Source of the DNA: Alphaproteobacteria bacterium
GTDB taxonomy: Bacteria; Pseudomonadota; Alphaproteobacteria; ATCC43930; CGMCC-115725
Assembly: GCA_038228485.1 (NCBI GenBank)
Contig: JBBRPG010000001.1
Location: 588 to 64,587 of the forward strand
Direction: 5' to 3'
DNA: 64,000 nt
Within the stretch, counting starts at the first letter, position 1, and every line of letters begins with the position of its first letter. The notes below the pieces were generated by a model. It had not been told where the DNA came from. It did no database searches and was given only the letters and a program-made list of their open reading frames with translations. Position numbers and translations under genes: made by a program. Below, piece after piece: positions 6,436 to 16,771 of this stretch.

Positions 6436-8357
6436 CCATCGAGACCACCCTGCCGCAATTGCTGCGGCGCAACGCCGGGACGATGGCAACCCGCCCGGCG
6501 ATGCGCGAAAAGGATCTCGGCATCTGGCAGCCCTATAGCTGGCGGCGGTATTGGGAAGAGGCGCGGGACTTTGCCGCCGGCCTCGCCGCCCACGGCTTCA
6601 AGGCGGGCGACAAGCTGGCGGTGATCGGCGAGAACCGGCCGCGGCTCTATTTCGCCCAGCTGTCGGCGATGTGCCTCGGCGGCTTCGCGGTGCCGGCCTA
6701 CCAGGACGCGATTGCCGCCGAGCTCGCCTATGTCCTCGACCATGCCGAGGTCTCGGTGGTCGTCGCCGAGGACCAGGAACAGGTCGATAAGGTGCTGTCG
6801 CTGAAGGACCGGCTGCCGCACCTCAAGCTCGTCGTCTATGACGACCCGCGCGGCCTCGCCGAGTACGACGACCCGCTGCTGCACTCGTTCGAGGCGGTGC
6901 AGGAAGAAGGGCGCCGCGCCGGCTTCAGCGCGGTGGAAGCGGCGGTCGATGCCGGCAAGCCCGACGATGTCTGCCTGTTCTCCTATACTTCGGGGACGAC
7001 GTCGCGGCCCAAGGGCGTGATGCTGTCGCACGCCAATTTGTTGAGCGCGGCCGAGGCGCTGGCCAAGGCCGAGGATATCCGCGCCGTCGACGACTTTCTC
7101 GCCTATCTGCCGATGGCATGGATCGGCAACTCGCTGTTTGCGATCGCGCTGCATTCGTGGATGGGCTTTACCTGCAACTACCCGGAAAAGCCCGAGACCT
7201 TGCTGCGCGACCTGCGCGAGCTGGGGCCGACCATCGCGCTCGCGCCGCCGCGTTTCTGGGAGAACACGCTGACCGCGGTGCTGGTGCGCGCCACCGATGC
7301 GAGCCGGCTTAAGCGTACCCTGTTCAACCTGTTCCGCCGCATCGCCGAGCGCGCCGAGACCGCCCGCGCCGCTGGCAAGCCGGTGTCGCCCGGGCTGCGT
7401 CTCGGCGCCGCGATCGGCGAGGTGGTGGTTTACGGGCCGCTGCGCGACCAGCTCGGCCTGCGCCGCGCCCGCTGGGTTTATACCGGCGGCGCGCCGCTCG
7501 GAGCCGACACGTTCCGCTTCTTCCGCGCCTTCGGGGTCAACCTGAAACAAGTCTATGGCGCGACCGAGTTGTCGGGCCTGTGTTCGGCGCAGGCCGACGG
7601 CGATGTCGATCCCGATACCGTCGGGCGCGCCTTTGCCGGCACCGAATTGCGCATCGGCGAAAGCGGCGAGGTGCAGGCCCGCTCCGACGCCGTGTTCCAG
7701 GGCTATTACAAGCAGCCCGAGGCGACCGCGGCGGCGATGACCGAGGATGGCTGGCTGCGCACCGGCGACGCCGGGTTCATCGACCGGCGCGGCCATCTCG
7801 TCATCATCGACCGGGCGCGCGATGTCGGCAAATTGGCTGACGGCAGCGCCTACGCTCCGCAATTCGTCGAGAACAAATTGAAGTTCAGCCCCTATCTCGG
7901 CGAGGCGGTGGCGTTCGGCGATGCCAGGCCGTTTGTCGCGGCCATCGTCGCCATCGACCCGACCACGGTCGGCAATTGGGCCGAGCGCCAGAACCTCGCC
8001 TACACCTCGTTCCAGGACCTCTGCGCGCGGCCGGAGGTCGCCGGGCTGATCCGCGAGGAAATCCGCAAGACCAACGCGATGCTGCCGGAGGCGGTGCAGA
8101 TCCGCCGCTTCCTGGTGCTCAACAAGGAATTCGACGCCGACGACGACGAGATCACCCGCACCCGCAAAATCCGCCGCGGCTTTGTCGCCGAGAAATACGC
8201 CGTGGTGGTCGAGGCGCTATACGCCGGTCACCGGGAAGTCGAGCTGTCGGCCGAGATCACCTACGAGGACGGGCGCAAGGCGATGCTGCGCTCGAACCTG
8301 ACGATCGCCGATGTCGACGAGGCGTCAGCGCCCGTCGAATTGGTCGCGGCGCAGTAG
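6432..8357 (+). CDS. Long-chain acyl-CoA synthetase (AMP-forming, FadD-like)
   Basis: ATG at 6432 within long track ORF 5532..8357. AMP-binding motif FSYTSGTTSRPKGVMLSH, then YGATE and TGDAGFIDRRGHLVIIDRARD. Confidence 0.85.
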   Translation: MTIETTLPQLLRRNAGTMATRPAMREKDLGIWQPYSWRRYWEEARDFAAGLAAHGFKAGDKLAVIGENRPRLYFAQLSAMCLGGFAVPAYQDAIAAELAYVLDHAEVSVVVAEDQEQVDKVLSLKDRLPHLKLVVYDDPRGLAEYDDPLLHSFEAVQEEGRRAGFSAVEAAVDAGKPDDVCLFSYTSGTTSRPKGVMLSHANLLSAAEALAKAEDIRAVDDFLAYLPMAWIGNSLFAIALHSWMGFTCNYPEKPETLLRDLRELGPTIALAPPRFWENTLTAVLVRATDASRLKRTLFNLFRRIAERAETARAAGKPVSPGLRLGAAIGEVVVYGPLRDQLGLRRARWVYTGGAPLGADTFRFFRAFGVNLKQVYGATELSGLCSAQADGDVDPDTVGRAFAGTELRIGESGEVQARSDAVFQGYYKQPEATAAAMTEDGWLRTGDAGFIDRRGHLVIIDRARDVGKLADGSAYAPQFVENKLKFSPYLGEAVAFGDARPFVAAIVAIDPTTVGNWAERQNLAYTSFQDLCARPEVAGLIREEIRKTNAMLPEAVQIRRFLVLNKEFDADDDEITRTRKIRRGFVAEKYAVVVEALYAGHREVELSAEITYEDGRKAMLRSNLTIADVDEASAPVELVAAQ

Positions 8358-9282: not shown

Positions 9283-10350
9283 ATGTTCCACCGCGAATCC
9301 GGCGTCTTCAAGACCAGCTACGCCGCCGATATGGCGCTTTATCCGCTGCCGATCGCGCGGTGGGCGGTGGCGGCGCTGGCGGCGTTGTTTATCGTCGCCG
9401 CGCCGCTTGCCTTGGGCAACTATCCGCTTTCGATCCTCAACCTGATCCTGATCGCGGTCGTCGGCGCGCTCGGGCTCAACATCCTGGTCGGCTATACCGG
9501 CCAGATCTCGATTGGCACCGGCGCCTTCATGTCGGTCGGCGCCTATACCGCCGCCAAGCTGGTGGTCATTTTCCACGCGCCGTTCTGGATCGCACTGCCT
9601 GCCGGCGGGCTGATGGCGGCCGCGGTCGGCGCCATCGTCGGCATCCCGTCGCTGCGCATCAAGGGCATTTACCTCGCCATCTCCACCCTGGCGGCGCAGC
9701 TGATCATCGAGTGGACGATCAACCACGTCGAATGGATTTCGGGCGGGGTGCAGGCCTCGATCAATGTGCCGCGGCCCTCCGTCTTCGGCACCCAGCTCAC
9801 CAGCGAGTGGCAAATTTATCTGTTCCTGATGTTCTTTGTCGTGCTGGCGCTGGTCGCAACCTTGAACCTGGTGCGCAGCCGCATCGGCCGCGCCTTTATC
9901 GCCATCCGCGACCAGGACATCGCCGCCGAGATCATCGGCATCAACATCTTCAAGTACAAGCTCTACGCCTTTGCCATTTCGTCGTTCTTCGCCGGGATCA
10001 CCGGCGCGCTGGAAAGCTATTACCTCGGCATCGCCAATTACGAGCAGTTCCAGATCGACGTCTCGATCGACTACCTGGCGATGGTGATCATCGGCGGGCT
10101 CGGGTCGGTGCTGGGGTCGGTGTTGGGTGCGATTTTCGTCACCCTGCTGCCGATCGCCACGCGCTGGTTTCTCGAAGCCTCGGGGGGACTGTTCTTTGCC
10201 CAGGCCGACATGCTCAACGTCATCCCCAATCTGCGGCTGGTCATCTTCGGCGGGCTGATCATCTTTTTTCTGGTGGTCGAGCCGGAAGGGCTCAACCGGC
10301 TGTGGCGCAACATCCGCAATTACTTCCGCGTCTGGCCATTTTCCTATTAA
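9283..10350 (+). CDS. ABC transporter permease, LivM-like
   Basis: 355-aa hydrophobic protein with LGLNILVGYTGQISIGTGAFMSVGAY, typical of the LivM family. Follows the LivH-like gene. Confidence 0.85.
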   Translation: MFHRESGVFKTSYAADMALYPLPIARWAVAALAALFIVAAPLALGNYPLSILNLILIAVVGALGLNILVGYTGQISIGTGAFMSVGAYTAAKLVVIFHAPFWIALPAGGLMAAAVGAIVGIPSLRIKGIYLAISTLAAQLIIEWTINHVEWISGGVQASINVPRPSVFGTQLTSEWQIYLFLMFFVVLALVATLNLVRSRIGRAFIAIRDQDIAAEIIGINIFKYKLYAFAISSFFAGITGALESYYLGIANYEQFQIDVSIDYLAMVIIGGLGSVLGSVLGAIFVTLLPIATRWFLEASGGLFFAQADMLNVIPNLRLVIFGGLIIFFLVVEPEGLNRLWRNIRNYFRVWPFSY

Positions 10351-10378
10351 CTGGGGCGAGTTGAAGGGAGGAACGACA

Positions 10379-11611
10379 ATGAAAACACTAGCAAAAAGCG
10401 TGCTCGCGCTGGCGCTCGGCGTGGCATTCGCCGGCGCCGCCGCGGCCGAGGACAAGGTGTTGCTGATCGGCGACCAGTGCGACCGCACCGGCCCGACCCA
10501 GATCGTCGGCACGGTGCTGTGCCCGGCGATGCAGGACTATTACAAGCTGGTCAATTCCAAGGGCGGCATCGACGGCTGGATGATCAAGGGCGACGAGATC
10601 GACAACGCCTACAAGGTGCCGGAAGGCATCGAAGCCTATGAGCGGCAAAAGCAGATGGGCGCGCTGATGATGACCTTTTACGGCACGCCGCAAGTCGTCG
10701 CGCTCAACCAGCGGCTCGAGCAGGACCACATGCCGACGACCTCGCCGGGCTTCGGCATTTCGGCGGCGGGTGACGGCAAGCGCTTCCCGTATCTGTTTCC
10801 GATCGCCGCAACCTACTGGTCGCAAAGCGCCGCGGCGGTCCAGTTCGCGAAGGACAAGCTGGAGGGCAACCTCAAGGGCAAAAAGATCGCCTACGTCTAT
10901 TACGACAATCCGGCCGGCAAGGAGCCGATGCCGATCCTCGAAGCGCTGCAGAAGCAGGAAGGCTTTGAGCTGCGCACCTTCGCGGTGCCGCCTCCGGGGG
11001 TCGAACTCGGCGCGCAGATTCTCGATGTCACCCAGCGCTTCCACCCGGATTTCGTGATTGCGCACCTGTTCGGCCGCTCGCCGTCGGTGTTGATCAAGGG
11101 GCTGAAGGGCGCCGGCTTCCCGTTGTCGAAGGTGGTCGGGCTGGTCTGGGCCTCGGCCGAGGCCGACATCCTGGCCGCGGGCGGCTGGCCGACGGCGGAA
11201 GGGTACAACACCATCCAGTTCGCCGGCGCGGGCGACGACTACCCGGTTCGCCAGGAAATCAAGGCCATGTACAAGAAAGAGGGCAAGGAGCCGCCGAAGG
11301 AGATGGAGAACACCGTGGTCTACAATCGCGGGCTCCTGCAGGCGGCGATCCAGGTCCAAGCCCTGACCAATGCCTTGAAGATCAGCAGCGGCAAGCTGCC
11401 CACCCGTGAGCAGGTCAAGGAAGGCATGGAGCAGATCAAGGACTTCACCCTCGGCGGGCTGGTGCCGCCGCTGCAGGTGACCGCGGCCGACCATGAGGGC
11501 GGCGGCTGGGTGCGGATATTCACGGCCAAGGGCGGCAAGTTCGTCGCCGCTACCGACTGGATCCACCCGTATCGCGAGGTCGTCGAGAACGCGCTCAAGA
11601 CCGCCGAGTAA
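10379..11611 (+). CDS. Periplasmic substrate-binding protein, type I (Leu/Ile/Val-binding-protein fold)
   Basis: ATG at 10379 behind GGAGG. Signal peptide MKTLAKSVLALALGVAFAGAAAA. Sits between the permease and ATPase genes of the same operon. Confidence 0.8.
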   Translation: MKTLAKSVLALALGVAFAGAAAAEDKVLLIGDQCDRTGPTQIVGTVLCPAMQDYYKLVNSKGGIDGWMIKGDEIDNAYKVPEGIEAYERQKQMGALMMTFYGTPQVVALNQRLEQDHMPTTSPGFGISAAGDGKRFPYLFPIAATYWSQSAAAVQFAKDKLEGNLKGKKIAYVYYDNPAGKEPMPILEALQKQEGFELRTFAVPPPGVELGAQILDVTQRFHPDFVIAHLFGRSPSVLIKGLKGAGFPLSKVVGLVWASAEADILAAGGWPTAEGYNTIQFAGAGDDYPVRQEIKAMYKKEGKEPPKEMENTVVYNRGLLQAAIQVQALTNALKISSGKLPTREQVKEGMEQIKDFTLGGLVPPLQVTAADHEGGGWVRIFTAKGGKFVAATDWIHPYREVVENALKTAE

Positions 11612-11652
11612 GGCGGCCGCGCAGCGCCGGAAAAACCCGTCGGGACAGCTCG

Positions 11653-12447
11653 ATGCTGGCGATCAACAACATCGAAGTCGTCTATGACGGCGTCATCCTG
11701 GTGTTGCGCGGCGTCTCGTTGCTCGCCGAGGAGGGCAGGATCACCACCCTCCTCGGCGCCAACGGCGCGGGCAAGACCACCACCTTGAAGGCGATCTCCG
11801 GCCTCCTGCACAGCGAGCGGGGGCAGGTGACCAAGGGCAATGTCGAGCTCGACGGCAACCGGCTCGACCGCCTGCAGCCGCACGAGGTGGTCAAGCACGG
11901 CGTCGTTCAGGTATTCGAGGGACGCCGCGTCTTCGAGAACCTGACGGTCGAGGAGAACCTTATCGTCGGCGCCCACAGCCGCACCGATTTCACCGCGGTA
12001 AAGCGCGGCATCGACCGGGTCTACCAGTCCTTCGCCGTGCTCAAGGAGCGGCGCGGCCAGCCGGCCGGCTATCTCTCGGGCGGCGAGCAGCAGATGCTGG
12101 TGATCGGCCGGGCGCTGATGTCCGACCCCAAGGTGGTGTTGCTCGACGAGCCGTCGCTCGGCCTCGCGCCGATGATCATCGAGGAGATTTTTGGGGTGAT
12201 CCGGCGCCTCAAGGACGAGCAGAAGCTGACGGTCCTGCTGGTCGAGCAGAACGCGGCGCTAGCCCTCGAGGTCGCCGACCACGCCTATGTCATGGAAAAC
12301 GGCCGCATCGTGCTCGAAGGCCCGGCCGAGTCGCTGCGTCAGAACTCGGACATCAAGGAATTCTACCTCGGCCTCAACGAGACCGGCGCGCGCAAATCCT
12401 ACCACGACGCCAAGCACTACAAGCGCCGCAAGCGCTGGCTGGCGTAG
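11653..12447 (+). CDS. ABC transporter ATP-binding protein, LivF-like
   Basis: Walker A GANGAGKTT, signature LSGGEQQMLVIGRAL, Walker B VVLLDEP. Confidence 0.85.
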   Translation: MLAINNIEVVYDGVILVLRGVSLLAEEGRITTLLGANGAGKTTTLKAISGLLHSERGQVTKGNVELDGNRLDRLQPHEVVKHGVVQVFEGRRVFENLTVEENLIVGAHSRTDFTAVKRGIDRVYQSFAVLKERRGQPAGYLSGGEQQMLVIGRALMSDPKVVLLDEPSLGLAPMIIEEIFGVIRRLKDEQKLTVLLVEQNAALALEVADHAYVMENGRIVLEGPAESLRQNSDIKEFYLGLNETGARKSYHDAKHYKRRKRWLA

Positions 12448-12458
12448 CCGCACCGGCT

Positions 12459-12586
12459 GTCATTCCCGCGAAAGCGGGAACCCACGAACACCACCGATTG
12501 ACCGGACTGGCACCAATCCTGCCATGCCTTTAGGATTCCGCGTTTATAGGTTCCGGGTCTGCCCTTTCGGGCATCCCGGAATGACA
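12459..12586. repeat. Intergenic palindromic REP-like element (GTCATTCC...GGAATGAC family variant)
   Basis: Starts gtcattcccgcgaaagcgggaacccac and ends gggcatcccggaatgac. Contains internal hairpins cccgcgaaagcggg and gccctttcgggc. Confidence 0.75.
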
Positions 12587-12599
12587 GAGGAGGACGTAA

Positions 12600-13601
12600 A
12601 TGCCCGACCTTCCCCGCATCGCGGTCATCGGCACCGGCGGCACGATCTCCTCGCTCGGCGCGGGCCCGCTCGACGTCCTCGACTACCCCGATTTCGGGCA
12701 GAAGCTGACCAGCGAGGCGCTGCTCGACAAGTTTCCCGAGACCCGGCTGGTGGCCGATCCGGTGCCGGTCACCTATCGCCAGGTCGGCAGCACCGCGATC
12801 GGCCCTGACGACTGGGTCGAGCTACGCCGGATGATCCACCGAATCACCAGCGACGACCCGAAAATCGCCGGCTTTGTCATCCCGCACGGCACCGCGACCC
12901 TCGAGGAGACCGCGTTCTTTCTCAACCTCACCCTCGCCACGCCGCACCCAGTGGTGCTGGTCGGGGCGCAGCGGCCGGCAAGCGCGCTCGGCACCGATGC
13001 CGGCACCAATCTGGTCAACGCGCTGCAGGTCGCCGGGTCGGCGGAGGCGCGCGACAAGGGGGTGCTGGTCGTCCTCAACAATGAGATTCACCCCGCCCGC
13101 GACGTGGTCAAGACCTCGACCTACCGGGTGCAGACCTTCCGCAGCTTCGATTTCGGCGCGCTCGGCCATGTCGACGGCGATGGCGTCCATTTCTACCGCG
13201 CGCCGTTGAAGGCGCACATGCCCGACACCGCCTTCGCCAATCGCGAGATCGGTGCACTGCCGCGGGTCGACATCGTGCTCAGCTATGCCGGCGCCGACAG
13301 CGCGCTGATCGACGCTGCGATCGGCGCCGGGGCCAAGGGCATCGTCTCGGCCGGGTTTGCGCCGGGCATCGGCAATCCCGAGCAGCAGGTTGCGTACGCC
13401 GCGGCGGCGAAGGCCGGGATCGTCGTCGTCCAGTGCAGCCGCGCGGCCAGCGGCCGGGTCGCGCCACGACGCAAATTGCGCGAGGCCGGCATCGTCGCCG
13501 GCGAGGATTTCTCGCCGCAAAAAGCCCGCATCCTGTTGATGCTGATGCTAGCCACGACCAGCGCCGTCGCCGAAATCCAGACGGCGTTCCAGACGTATTG
13601 A
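12600..13601 (+). CDS. L-asparaginase/glutaminase family protein
   Basis: Active-site motifs IAVIGTGGTISS and HGTATLEETAFFL. RBS AGGAGG lies upstream of the ATG. Confidence 0.85.
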   Translation: MPDLPRIAVIGTGGTISSLGAGPLDVLDYPDFGQKLTSEALLDKFPETRLVADPVPVTYRQVGSTAIGPDDWVELRRMIHRITSDDPKIAGFVIPHGTATLEETAFFLNLTLATPHPVVLVGAQRPASALGTDAGTNLVNALQVAGSAEARDKGVLVVLNNEIHPARDVVKTSTYRVQTFRSFDFGALGHVDGDGVHFYRAPLKAHMPDTAFANREIGALPRVDIVLSYAGADSALIDAAIGAGAKGIVSAGFAPGIGNPEQQVAYAAAAKAGIVVVQCSRAASGRVAPRRKLREAGIVAGEDFSPQKARILLMLMLATTSAVAEIQTAFQTY

Positions 13602-13700: not shown

Positions 13701-14621
13701 CTAGGACACTGCCGGTGGGTCCTCGGCGACGGCTCGGTCGGCCAGCGAGTTGTCGACCGCGACGGCGTAGTCGACGCCTTGGCAAAACCCGCCGGAAACC
13801 AGCCCGTCTTTCAGCCGCTCGTAGCCGTCGCGCGGCAAAATCGGTGTCTTGCCCCAGATGCCGAGCGCCTTGTATCGCGCCAGCGCCGCCGCCAGTAGCG
13901 GCCGTTTCACCGCCGGGAAATAGCTCTGCACCACATCCGCCAGCGCCTCGGCCGGCTGCGCATGCAGCCATTTCTGCGTGCGGTAGAGCCCCCGCACCAA
14001 CAGCCGCATCTCGTCGCGCTTGGCTTCGAGCACCCCGCGCCGCGCGTAGAAGGTCGTGTACGAGCACGGCCCGCGGCTCGCCGCCGCGTACCACAGATGA
14101 CCCGACCCGTCGGCGAGCAATTCCTCCGCCAGCGGCTGGAACAGCTGGACGACATCGACCGTGCCCGCGCCCAGCGCCGCCATGTTGTCGGCCATGCCGC
14201 GGTCGGCGACGCGGTCGAGGCTCGCCGGGTCGATCCCGGCCAGCCGCAGATCGTGCTGCAGGCACAACCACGGGGTCGGCACCTCGCTGACCGTGGCGAT
14301 CCGCGCGCTCGCCACATCGGTCAGCGCAAAGTCCGGTCGCGGCTCGCGGCCCACCAGCAGGAACGGGTCGCGCGTCACTGCCTCGCCAAAGCACACGACA
14401 TCGCAATCAGTGCGCTCCGCATAGAGCTGGTTGACCCGCATCGGCCCGCCCCAGGCGACATCGGTGCTGCCGTCATAGAGGCCGGTCGGCGCGTTGCCGA
14501 ACCCCGGCGCGCCGGCAAAGCGCACCTCCACCCCTTCCTTTTCGTACGCGCCCAGCGCAAACGCCGCGTAATAGGGCGCGTAGAACAGCCCACGCAGCGA
14601 TTCCTGCAGAATAATTGTCAT
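13701..14621 (-). CDS. NMT1/THI5-like (NitT/TauT-type) substrate-binding-fold protein, no obvious signal peptide
   Basis: Track ORF. The N-terminus SLRGLFYAPYYAAFALGAYEKEGVEV resembles the SsuA/NMT1 family. Confidence 0.6.
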   Translation of the reverse strand: MTIILQESLRGLFYAPYYAAFALGAYEKEGVEVRFAGAPGFGNAPTGLYDGSTDVAWGGPMRVNQLYAERTDCDVVCFGEAVTRDPFLLVGREPRPDFALTDVASARIATVSEVPTPWLCLQHDLRLAGIDPASLDRVADRGMADNMAALGAGTVDVVQLFQPLAEELLADGSGHLWYAAASRGPCSYTTFYARRGVLEAKRDEMRLLVRGLYRTQKWLHAQPAEALADVVQSYFPAVKRPLLAAALARYKALGIWGKTPILPRDGYERLKDGLVSGGFCQGVDYAVAVDNSLADRAVAEDPPAVS

Positions 14622-14653
14622 GCTCTTTCAACACCTCAGGATATACAGATAAA

Positions 14654-15541
14654 TTAGATCTCGTCGAGATGCCGACCTATAAATTCTGCAGACTCTCTCC
14701 AAGCAGGTTTTATTTCACTACTATCTGGGTCTTTATACCAAGATGGTCCCCATATATGGTGCATATTCCATTCCCAGGACACCTCTTTTCCTTTTTGGAA
14801 ATATGATTTAGTGGTTGGAAAAATTCGATATGATTTTCTTGCATCGTCTAGTGATTTGGTTTCTATAATAACGCCTTTGGCGTCAAGAACCGGAGCGATG
14901 CACTTTTCATCAGAGAAAAAAATAACACCTGGATGATAAATAGTACTGATTTCACGTGGAAGTTCATTAAGTGTTTTAAGTATTATTATTCCCGAATCGA
15001 TCGCGCGCACTATGTCATCATCGTTCGCAGCGCCTCCATGGATTATTTTGTTTCGAATTTCTCTGAATAAATTAAAAGACCCAGCCATATGTGTCGGGAA
15101 GCCATACGGCACTAATTCGGTAAGCGCCTGACTGACTTGTAGATTTCGACGGTCTCGAAGCAGTCCGCGGGCAGCTAAAGAACGTCGGGCTTGTTTATCA
15201 ATTTCGGCTGATAGCATTATCAAAGATACTCTTGGAGCTACCGCGGCTTGTTTGAGTATGTTATCAATAATATTATTACCGCTATATTCTAAAGATTCTG
15301 CTATGTTATCAGATATCTCTAATGGAGGTAACAATACGGTTTCTTTTTCGGCGACAGCTATGGAGGTTTCCAGTTTTTGCAAATTTTCGTCCAATTCAAA
15401 CTCTTGTCCAAAGATTTTTCCTTTTTTCAACCGCCCAAAGGCTTGGCGAATATCCTGCCTAAACATCCATAGAGCGACAAACCCTAAAATAGGCCAGAGT
15501 AATGCAGCGAAAGCCTTAAGCAGCGCCGAGACCTCCGCCAT
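14654..15541 (-). CDS. Hypothetical membrane-anchored protein with an HEPN-like R-N-x3-H motif, encoded by an AT-rich cassette
   Basis: Single clean 295-aa ORF filling an AT-rich segment. N-terminal hydrophobic helix SALLKAFAALLWPILGFVALWMF, helical module with FREIRNKIIHGG, and a Trp-rich C-terminal region. RBS GAGGAAAG overlaps the upstream stop codon. Confidence 0.8.
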   Translation of the reverse strand: MAEVSALLKAFAALLWPILGFVALWMFRQDIRQAFGRLKKGKIFGQEFELDENLQKLETSIAVAEKETVLLPPLEISDNIAESLEYSGNNIIDNILKQAAVAPRVSLIMLSAEIDKQARRSLAARGLLRDRRNLQVSQALTELVPYGFPTHMAGSFNLFREIRNKIIHGGAANDDDIVRAIDSGIIILKTLNELPREISTIYHPGVIFFSDEKCIAPVLDAKGVIIETKSLDDARKSYRIFPTTKSYFQKGKEVSWEWNMHHIWGPSWYKDPDSSEIKPAWRESAEFIGRHLDEI

Positions 15542-15547
15542 CTTTCC

Positions 15548-16771
15548 TCACCCCGCCTTGAGAATATCCGCCGCGGCGTCGGCGAATACCTGGGCGCCGA
15601 GCACGATATCTTCTTCGCGCGTGTCTTCTGACCAATGGTGGCTGATGCCCTTGAGGCTGGGGATGAACATCATCCCAGCGCGCAGCTTGTGCGAGATCAC
15701 CTGCGCGTCGTGGCCGGCGCCGCTCGGCATGCGCAGATGGCCGCCGGGCACATGGGCCTCGGCCGCCGCCTCGATCAGCGCCTGGAACTGGCCGTCCATC
15801 GCCCTGGGCTCGGTCTGCGACATGTTCTCGATGGTGCAGCGGCACGGGCCGGCGCGGTCGCTGGCGCCGCACAGCTCCTGCAGCGCCGCGGCAAAGCACG
15901 CGAGGATCGCCTCGTCGGTGTCGCGGAACTGCACCTGCATCTCGGCGCGGCCGGGAACGACGCTCGGCGCGTTGGGGTCGAGCAGCATGCGCCCGATCGT
16001 CCACACCGTGCGCGCGCCGGCGATCTCGGCAAAGCGGTCATGGATCGCCGTCGCTAGCCGCACCAGCGCCACCCCGGCGTCCTTGCGGCGCGGCATCTGG
16101 GTGGTGCCGGCGTGGTTCTGCTGGCCCTCCAGCACGACCCGGTAGTTCCAGATGCCAACGATGCCTTCGACCACGCCGATCCGCCGGCCGCTGCTGTCGA
16201 GCGTGTCGCCCTGCTCGATATGCGCTTCGAGATAGCCGAGGTGCCGTCCCGGCTCGGCCGCGATGCGCGGGCGTCCGGCAAACCCGGCCTTGGCCAGCGC
16301 ATCGCGCAGCGCGACCCCGTCGCGGCTTTGCGAACGATCGATCTCCGCCTCGTCGAGCGCGCCGGTGAAACTGCGGCTGCCGAGCATGTTGCCGTAATGG
16401 CCTTCCTCGTCGGCCCAGGCCACCACATCGATGCCGAGCCCGGCCAGCGCCGGGTCGCCGCGGAACGCGCGCGCCGCCTCCAGCGCGTAGATCACCCCCA
16501 GCGCGCCGTCGAGCCAGCCGCCTTTCGGCTGGGTCTCGCTGTGCGAGCCGACCAGCAGCCGGCGGCTGGCATCCGGCGCGCGCCCGAAGACGTTGCCGAT
16601 CCCGTCGATCACCGGCTCCAGCCCCGCCTCGGCGAATTTCTCGGCGAGCCAGTGGCGCGAGGCGACATCGACCGCGGAATAGGTCGGGCGGTCGACCCCG
16701 GTCTCATAGCGGCCGAACTCGGCCAGGCGCTTGAGGTCGGCGACGATGCGGGCACCATCGGTTTTCGGCAT
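15548..16771 (-). CDS. N-carbamoyl-L-amino-acid amidohydrolase / allantoate amidohydrolase family (M20 peptidase fold, HyuC/AmaB-like)
   Basis: 407 aa. GVDRPTYS..., VGSHSETQPKGGWLDGALGV and GAGHDAQ are typical of the Zn-dependent carbamoylase family. Confidence 0.8.
   Translation of the reverse strand: MPKTDGARIVADLKRLAEFGRYETGVDRPTYSAVDVASRHWLAEKFAEAGLEPVIDGIGNVFGRAPDASRRLLVGSHSETQPKGGWLDGALGVIYALEAARAFRGDPALAGLGIDVVAWADEEGHYGNMLGSRSFTGALDEAEIDRSQSRDGVALRDALAKAGFAGRPRIAAEPGRHLGYLEAHIEQGDTLDSSGRRIGVVEGIVGIWNYRVVLEGQQNHAGTTQMPRRKDAGVALVRLATAIHDRFAEIAGARTVWTIGRMLLDPNAPSVVPGRAEMQVQFRDTDEAILACFAAALQELCGASDRAGPCRCTIENMSQTEPRAMDGQFQALIEAAAEAHVPGGHLRMPSGAGHDAQVISHKLRAGMMFIPSLKGISHHWSEDTREEDIVLGAQVFADAAADILKAG

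Follow-up and report, generated by a model that had tools for sequence, protein, structure and literature searches.

A predicted membrane-anchored HEPN protein gene inserted between two host genes of an alphaproteobacterium

Proteins with a single transmembrane (TM) helix bearing a WP signature and a DUF4145-like HEPN domain have been catalogued in silico, with the Vibrio cholerae protein gi 153825856 as an example, and stimulus-dependent RNA degradation has been proposed for such TM-linked HEPN proteins (Anantharaman, Makarova, Burroughs, Koonin, Aravind 2013, Biol Direct 8:15, PMC3710099). Here we describe a protein of similar design, 295 amino acids (aa) long, which is encoded on the minus strand at positions 14654..15541 of a 64,000-nucleotide (nt) stretch of contig JBBRPG010000001.1 (assembly GCA_038228485.1); this whole stretch is called the window below. 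The gene lies in about 920 bp of foreign DNA that were inserted between two host genes in this lineage only. We consider the recent insertion of a promoterless gene for a stand-alone membrane conflict effector with a HEPN ribonuclease (RNase) to be the best explanation, with a probability of roughly 0.6. The window protein and its homologues (the window family) share with the 2013 group the N-terminal WP TM helix, a cytoplasmic Rx4H HEPN domain and presence in Vibrio, and in both the TM module occurs with other C-terminal domains. A C-terminal beta domain of 100 aa is a feature of the window family, and the available part of the text of PMC3710099 makes no mention of it. Compared by description only, the window family is likely the 2013 group or a part of it.

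The closest systems with a described activity are single-protein defences. RAZR, a zinc-finger sensor joined to a DUF4145 HEPN domain, and HepS are trigger-activated anti-phage HEPN RNases in which oligomerisation completes the HEPN site (PMC13434031). Like the window family they combine a variable non-catalytic domain with one HEPN domain in one polypeptide and have no antitoxin; unlike it, they have no TM anchor and use other sensor domains. Ishtar (ist1/ist2), which acts against plasmid RP4, is monogenic and has a DUF4145/DUF3644 HEPN domain and a beta-rich C-terminal domain. The window family resembles it in being a single gene with these two parts in the same order, and differs from it in having a TM helix; Ishtar genes have defence genes as neighbours and also occur in Vibrio integrons and P4 satellites. 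Membership in Ishtar itself was considered and rejected, as the RefSeq accessions of the window family are absent from the Ishtar homologue Table S3 and an hhalign comparison covers the HEPN core only (probability 7%, E = 0.005), leaving the C-terminal domains unaligned.

Csx28, the accessory protein of type VI-B2 systems, is a Cas13b-activated membrane pore (10.1101/2021.11.02.466367). By description it is like the window protein in having an N-terminal TM helix and one HEPN domain and in its location at the membrane, and it is unlike it in its dependence on Cas13b, its divergent HEPN motif and its lack of a beta domain; there are no cas genes among the flanking genes of the window and of the annotated homologue loci. 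The HEPN core finds its best structural matches in the HepT/MNT type VII toxins (PDB 5yep, 6m6w, 7bxo and 1wwp; probability 0.72-0.87, not statistically significant), from which the window protein differs in its extra TM and beta domains and in having no adjacent MNT antitoxin gene. Vibrio chromosomal integrons hold monogenic defence genes in their cassettes, among them the HEPN-like 'Esos' and the AbiJ-like 'Taranis' of the V. cholerae integron (10.1101/2024.07.02.601686). Members of the window family at loci L167, L086, L087, L111 and L143 are similarly compact single HEPN genes flanked by attC, unlike the window copy, which lies outside any array and has no attC; Esos is likened to them by description only. 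HEPN effectors, TM-linked HEPN proteins and cassette-borne defences are thus already described, and no new principle is involved; what is new here is that a TM-HEPN family has a beta domain with no structural relative found and is documented to move in cassettes and morons.

A foreign gene between two host genes

A preliminary description of the window, made from its letters alone, had pointed to the striking AT-richness of 14622-15547, and a GC scan bears this out. The 64 kb contain a single AT-rich block at 14609-15520, and the other 1-kb bins have no dip. G+C content (GC) in 200-nt windows is 0.345-0.485 across 14600-15500 versus 0.66-0.76 in the flanks, and every 200-nt window below 0.5 in the whole 64 kb is confined to 14521-15580. 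The gene itself has a GC of 0.414, which is z = -9.7 against the other 888-nt windows of the 64 kb (mean 0.666, sd 0.026), and its GC at third codon positions (GC3) is 0.345, as against 0.895 and 0.86 in the two neighbouring genes. The insert and its flanks are made up as follows, ORF standing for open reading frame.

14609..15520, no strand: AT-rich compositional block (foreign DNA), GC 0.35-0.48, with borders about 12-21 nt off the ORF borders
14654..15541, minus strand: HEPN ORF, 295 aa (TM anchor, HEPN domain and beta-rich C-terminal domain), with full-length homologues at 37-54% identity
15542..15547, minus strand: upstream spacer GGAAAG, 6 nt, which with the preceding TGA forms the Shine-Dalgarno-like GAGGAAAG and is unlike the GC-rich empty-site spacers
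14622..14653, minus strand: downstream spacer, 32 nt, with GAGGTG and GAAAGA ahead of the next ATG and with no attC, hairpin or terminator (minimum free energy 0 kcal/mol)
15548..16771, minus strand: host gene for an M20-family amidohydrolase, upstream flank (Pfam Peptidase_M20, 9e-19; orthologues at most 88% identical)
13701..14621, minus strand: host gene for an NMT1-like substrate-binding protein (SBP), downstream flank (Pfam NMT1/NMT1_2)

The evidence for an insertion comes from the relatives of this locus. The amidohydrolase protein was scanned against one genome per species, and this gave 80 loci, mostly from Stellaceae and uncultured alphaproteobacterial metagenome-assembled genomes (MAGs), the best at 88% identity. 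The 295-aa protein was found by tblastn in none of the 80. The NMT1-like gene lies directly downstream of the amidohydrolase gene in 26 of them, and 24 of these 26 have an empty-site spacer of only about 4-14 nt (for example GGCG, GACG, GCGCG, AGTCG or GCGAG), so the two genes form a conserved, tightly coupled pair. Since all 80 related loci lack the gene and the flanking genes nearly abut in 24, the insertion is recent, and its extremely foreign composition likewise indicates a recent arrival. The empty-site comparison had been suggested in the preliminary description together with the idea of horizontal acquisition, which it upholds.

The ORF coordinates agree with the spacers first reported. 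The HEPN ORF starts 6 nt past the stop of ORF 15548..16771 and ends 32 nt ahead of the start of ORF 13701..14621, all on the same strand. The segment had also been called almost exactly one gene; the AT-rich block does hold this single ORF, and its compositional borders do not coincide with those of the gene, the shifted stretches being 15521-15541 and 14610-14621. At the first of these, codons 1-7 of the HEPN ORF (ATGGCGGAGGTCTCGGCGCTG) have a host-like GC3 of 1.0, yet encode a family-like N-terminus. At the second, the first four codons of the downstream SBP gene (ATGACAATTATT) all end in A or T, and orthologues use ATGACGATCATC or ATGACCATCATC for the same MTII peptide. A GC-rich 5' end common to the family was rejected as the cause of the first seven codons, as the family mean GC3 is 0.49 in codons 2-7 and 0.49 in codons 8-60. 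The 6-mer GAAAGA occurs at 15541-15546 and at 14624-14629 and so precedes or overlaps both start codons. The offset borders may be the original recombination joints, or they may reflect later gene conversion or selection for translational coupling.

Several vehicles for the insert were considered. A transposon or miniature inverted-repeat transposable element does not fit, as there are no terminal inverted repeats, no convincing target-site duplication and no second ORF in the insert; the sole flanking direct repeat is GAAAGA, which is also part of both ribosome-binding regions. An integron origin of the window copy was rejected as well, as it has no attC, no upstream core and an unstructured 3' spacer, and the attC search gave at most 6 of 7 matches, which are not mutually complementary. 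The earlier statement that no tRNA gene lies nearby is correct, and tRNA and Rfam scans found neither tRNA genes nor Rfam families across the window. The window copy has no integrase signature, with profiling confined to the two genes that flank the HEPN ORF and no profile search for integrase or transposase genes across the window. A promoter and terminator belonging to the HEPN gene were also looked for and rejected, with promoter-like sites at chance level and no terminators.

Other DNA is present at the amidohydrolase/SBP junction in two relatives. A related alphaproteobacterial MAG has an independent insertion of about 520 bp there (L039:7213-7737) with a 105-aa ORF on the opposite strand (7230-7547), which matches UPF0213 protein BH0048 (PDB 1zg2, E = 3.7e-5), of a small GIY-YIG-type family. 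At locus L007 this position is occupied by an 82-nt GC-rich insert. The junction seems to be a repeated insertion target.

Family, domains and predicted topology

The window protein belongs to a large family of uniform length. A protein library clustered at 90% identity contains 154 homologues at E<=1e-3; among the 120 matches listed, almost every one is full length at 285-310 aa, and identities are 37-54%. A profile search of a 50%-identity library with 1.84 billion cluster representatives matched 2963 clusters at E<=1e-3, 1017 at <=1e-10 and 464 at <=1e-30, almost all of the same length and aligned end to end. Residue counts below are from a 245-member family alignment, and Pfam results are from a sample of 36 members. 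The AlphaFold2 model made with the family alignment has a mean predicted local distance difference test score (pLDDT) of 84.6, with values above 90 from residue 90 on. Its helices are at residues 2-26, others up to 69, then 87-101, 103-124, 136-142, 150-167 and 174-192; residues 70-86 are disordered, and seven beta strands lie between residues 198 and 287. The modules of the protein are encoded at the following positions.

15464..15526, minus strand: single N-terminal TM helix, residues ~6-26 (AlphaFold2 helix 2-26), with W16-P17 at 15491-15496
15392..15433, minus strand: conserved basic juxtamembrane motif R37-LKKGKIFGQEFE-L50 (R37 in 235/245, G45 in 239/245, E47 in 216, E49 in 219 and L50 in 217)
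15284..15391, minus strand: linker, residues 51-86, helical and then disordered and acidic, with pLDDT below 50 at 71-86 and variable length (insertions in P0242 and P0264)
14966..15283, minus strand: HEPN domain, residues 87-192, with four core helices and an insert between helices 2 and 3 (from Pfam, AlphaFold2, Foldseek and conservation)
15038..15055, minus strand: catalytic-type Rx4H motif R163-N-K-I-I-H168, sequence cgaaacaaaataatccat, at the end of helix 150-167 (the third core helix)
14657..14959, minus strand: all-beta domain, residues 195-295 (AlphaFold pLDDT 92.6, seven strands), with W256-E-W258, W268-Y269, W281 and E286-F-x-G-R290

An HEPN-like R-N-x3-H module had been proposed for the middle of the protein, and the family alignment strengthens that proposal considerably. 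R163 is present in 237 of the 245 members (97%), N164 in 218 (89%) and H168 in 244 (99.6%). Position 115 (D115 in the window protein, in helix 103-124) is E or D in 241 (98%) and so supplies the helix-2 acid, and F159 (243/245) and D182 (240/245) are also conserved. Five HEPN-clan Pfam models match at the motif, namely Swt1 (19/36 members), RiboL-PSP (11/36), Apea (10/36), DUF4145 (7/36) and HepT (3/36), all below their gathering thresholds; the best profile match of the window protein is HEPN_Swt1 (E = 0.057; 14.1 bits, where the cut-off is 27.5), and the best-scoring member, P0242, reaches 26.6 bits. The fold check that had been advised points the same way but falls short of statistical significance, with the motif placed where the third core helix ends, at pLDDT above 90, and, in a Foldseek search of the PDB with the full model, sensible matches only to the HepT/HEPN toxins 5yep_C (probability 0.87), 6m6w_H, 1wwp_A and 7bxo_G (target TM-scores 0.49-0.57, E above 0.1; all E-values of the search exceed 0.05). 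HEPN domains have been described as having the motif at the end of helix 3, an acid in helix 2 and an insert between helices 2 and 3 (PMC3710099), and the window family agrees with that description in the position of its motif and in its insert between helices 2 and 3. Membership of the HEPN superfamily is thus well supported by motif, conservation and predicted fold. The more specific DUF4145-like arrangement that was also proposed fares less well. The DUF4145 model (PF13643) does match those seven members (best E 9.9e-5, below the cut-off), and UniRef labels one member, from Methylomonas fluvii, as DUF4145; the window protein itself has no match. This specific assignment is weak, and a Swt1/AbiV-like subfamily is also a candidate. 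In PADLOC-DB v2 no system model is matched significantly, and the only weak matches are to CARF_HEPN (E = 0.0015 and 0.0069).

The preliminary description also had the protein anchored in the membrane, and the family alignment agrees. Both W16 (236/245 members) and P17 (214/245) fall within the predicted TM helix, which has a median of five residues in front of it. Net charge averages -0.4 on the N-terminal side and +4.4 over the 20 residues that follow the helix, and by the positive-inside rule this distribution places the HEPN and C-terminal domains in the cytoplasm, with the N-terminus out, the C-terminus in and no periplasmic domain. The predicted topology is therefore that of an N-out single-pass protein with a very short periplasmic N-terminus and a cytoplasmic HEPN domain. 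Just inside the membrane the alignment has the pattern R37...G41-K42..G45-x-E47-x-E49-L50.

The C-terminal 100 residues or so, which had been left without a family assignment, are still without one. Modelled alone from 45 sequences, the domain has seven strands with a pLDDT of 92.6 and a predicted TM-score of 0.84, and Foldseek found no match to it at E<=1e-3 in the PDB or BFVD. A likeness to the oligonucleotide/oligosaccharide-binding fold of single-stranded DNA-binding proteins was noted and set aside (TM-scores 0.40-0.48, E>=0.7, too weak for use). Most of the conserved residues in the domain are aromatic or charged (W256-E-W258, W268-Y269-x-D271, W281 and E286-F-x-G-R290), which would be compatible with a ligand- or partner-binding surface.

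Some relatives depart from the common architecture. On an IMG/VR contig, a 217-aa ORF (L096:7929-8582) has the WP TM helix and the juxtamembrane motif GRLRRGKMFGQEIEL at 50% identity, followed by about 130 C-terminal aa that are unrelated to the family and have no Pfam match, so the membrane module is a swappable unit. P0304 (480 aa) has the HEPN and C-terminal domains behind an N-terminal region of about 290 aa with no recognisable TM module; together with L096 it indicates that the modules are separable. P0242, P0250 and P0264 (331-356 aa) keep the TM module and have long proline/alanine-rich linkers. Neither the C-terminal domain nor the TM module, when used by itself as a profile query, brought up anything but short fragments.

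Homologues in integrons, prophages and near defence genes

The family occurs well beyond housekeeping contexts, as had been anticipated, and it spreads as integron cassettes and as prophage moron cargo. The clearest integron example is in Vibrio parahaemolyticus (L167:1-7139, DAHRRE010000030.1), where a chromosomal integron holds the family gene in its cassette array, with a copy of a 125-145-nt repeat like the Vibrio cholerae repeat (VCR) on either side of the gene and same-strand cassettes around it. The neighbours of the gene include acetyltransferases, a cupin and an AbiJ_NTD4/Abi_C (AbiJ-like) protein, with an opposite-strand CcdB gene at the edge of the locus. Over residues 92-295 the product shares 48% identity with the window protein; the gene is split into ORFs of 54 and 215 aa, by a frameshift, a stop codon or a sequencing error. 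More generally, a GTTRRRY core lies 19-31 nt upstream of the start codon in 10 of 37 non-redundant loci, against a chance expectation of about 1.3% of loci (estimated from 1/1024 per position and 13 positions), and in six of these ten a strict RYYYAAC...GTTRRRY imperfect palindrome begins 1-11 nt past the stop. Two of the attC-like palindromes were folded and gave z = -3.8 and -6.1 relative to shuffled sequence. The attC-like sites are at loci L086, L087, L108, L111, L118 and L143.

IMG/VR contigs contain four full-length homologues, and three P2-like prophages carry the family gene (L092:4686-5576, L093:8001-8891 and L095:5161-6057). The P2-like copies lie between the tail-completion (gpS-like) and baseplate (gpV-like) genes, which is the position of orf30, and have a GC of 0.42-0.44 versus about 0.60-0.62 in the flanking phage DNA. 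In P2-like phages orf30 is one of three sites of horizontally acquired genes (PMC3091744), and like the Z/fun and old/tin regions it may hold anti-phage cargo.

Individual neighbours at other loci include Hachiman, restriction-modification and toxin-antitoxin genes. In Nitrosospira briensis (L088) the family gene lies about 830 nt from a divergent Hachiman locus (HamA, DEAD helicase and DUF3223/HamC). Toxin-antitoxin genes are nearby in L004 (ParE and a weak match to BrnT) and L090 (ParE), and other neighbours are an Mrr-like gene in L086 (weak Pfam match), an adjacent methyltransferase+RAMA gene in L099, a transposase in L126 and a phage portal gene in L161. At 38 of 45 loci the gene has a lower GC than its flanks; the median difference is -0.057, and the window copy shows the greatest shift of all (-0.253). 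A conserved partner or antitoxin was sought and rejected, as none recurs across the inspected loci and the downstream genes for proteins of 334 aa (L001) and 330 aa (L088) are unrelated to each other. The latter gene (L088:9014-10006) has a weak RiboL-PSP-HEPN match (E = 0.003) and is possibly a second HEPN gene in the same islet.

Proposed function and its alternatives

The RNase activity of the protein, its trigger, its defence role and the expression of its gene, all of which we infer, would fit together as follows. The lack of a terminator, promoter sites no more frequent than chance and the Shine-Dalgarno-like GAGGAAAG and GAGGTG ahead of the two start codons suggest that the HEPN gene is transcribed, cassette-like, by read-through from the operon promoter. 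In the resting state the protein would sit idle at the inner membrane. A phage or plasmid cue might be sensed through the C-terminal domain, the membrane module or both, HEPN-HEPN pairing would then complete the composite RNase site, and RNA cleavage would arrest the cell or the invader or lead to loss of the invader. The resting inactivity and the sensing, pairing and cleavage steps are modelled by analogy on RAZR and HepS (PMC13434031) and on the proposal for Ishtar. If this is true, the family would be an abundant and compact (295 aa) one-gene immune or toxin module that joins a membrane anchor, an RNase and an unclassified sensor-like fold, and its carriage in integron cassettes and P2 morons would make it a strong candidate for the monogenic HEPN defences exemplified by RAZR, HepS and Ishtar. 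The window copy shows that a cassette-type gene can enter a metabolic operon with neither neighbour disrupted, and the insertion would put a potentially lethal RNase under the control of a catabolic promoter.

Several results weigh against this explanation. No Pfam profile is matched at its curated threshold, no Foldseek match of the full model in the PDB reaches E<=1e-3, and searches of the PDB by sequence, NCBIfam and PHROGs gave nothing significant for the family, so that no solved structure is related to it by sequence search of the PDB. There was no match in 72,556 plasmids (PLSDB) or 50,697 phage genomes (INPHARED), and an attC is missing from the window copy. Of the contexts inspected, roughly half are of a housekeeping or unknown kind (the window itself, L003, L089, L112, L147 and L163). 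The suggested enrichment near defence genes stands for individual neighbours such as Hachiman and toxin-antitoxin genes and does not extend to a clean statistical enrichment: PADLOC gave 96 model hits near the gene (+-3 kb) versus 12 far from it (4.5-7.5 kb), counts that come from redundant models on few proteins and so are anecdotal and unusable as enrichment.

In a bolder version of the conflict-effector explanation, which we think unlikely, the members of the family would be single-protein immune sensors of a new, membrane-resident class. The WP transmembrane/juxtamembrane module would sense when an incoming phage or conjugation apparatus perturbs the envelope, the previously unseen beta domain would gate the HEPN RNase, and the gene would be built as a promoterless cassette, of which the window copy, with no attC and with translation signals restored on both sides, would record capture into operons free of the integron platform.

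The protein could instead be a membrane-associated regulatory RNase with no immune role, which degrades or processes RNA at the inner membrane face upon envelope or surface stimuli. This is what the proposal of stimulus-dependent RNA degradation for WP-TM HEPN proteins (PMC3710099) would suggest, and many loci are housekeeping-like, with the gene often co-directional behind a host gene. However, the distribution is patchy, the gene being absent from 80 of 80 close relatives of the host locus, its GC is below that of the flanks at those 38 of 45 loci, and it is carried in integron cassettes and prophage moron loci. Patchiness, low GC and mobile carriage are typical of accessory conflict genes and not of conserved physiology, and we regard a purely regulatory role as improbable.

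A second functional alternative places the activity in the membrane. As in Csx28, which also has a single N-terminal TM helix and one HEPN domain, the TM helices of an oligomer could form a pore or depolarise the membrane, with the HEPN domain as an assembly or regulatory module and no nuclease. The strongly conserved juxtamembrane motif does suggest that the membrane module has a function of its own, and this module is swappable. The near invariance of R, N, H and the helix-2 acid argues instead for catalysis; moreover, annotated neighbours include no cas genes, sequence similarity to solved structures is lacking, and P0304 keeps the HEPN and C-terminal domains without the TM helix. A pore of this kind is quite unlikely.

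The gene might also be a selfish toxin or passenger of no benefit to the host, either silent, decaying new DNA or a toxin held in check by an unrecognised antitoxin. Its extremely foreign composition and recent arrival, the frequency of toxin-antitoxin genes among the neighbours of the family and the Vibrio copy split in two ORFs would all be in keeping with this. Against it, the window ORF is intact and retains every invariant position of the family, there is no conserved partner ORF, the 6-nt and 32-nt spacers are too small for another gene, and purifying constraint is clear over hundreds of clusters. We therefore consider a passenger to be distinctly improbable. A chimeric join in a metagenome-assembled contig is very improbable indeed, even though relatives of the flanking genes are almost all from MAGs, the exact protein is present on one contig only and an exact-sequence look-up gave no second record, because both flanking genes are intact, the insert fits stop to start with Shine-Dalgarno-like spacers, a chimera would require two precise joins and the family has AT-rich single genes in comparable positions in other, independent assemblies.

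Farther from the insert, a run of plus-strand ORFs at 9283-13601 converges on the amidohydrolase/SBP pair. By eye, with no profile search, these ORFs look like a branched-chain-type ABC permease, a binding protein, an ATPase and a 333-aa asparaginase-like protein, a resemblance that fits an amino-acid or amide catabolic neighbourhood.

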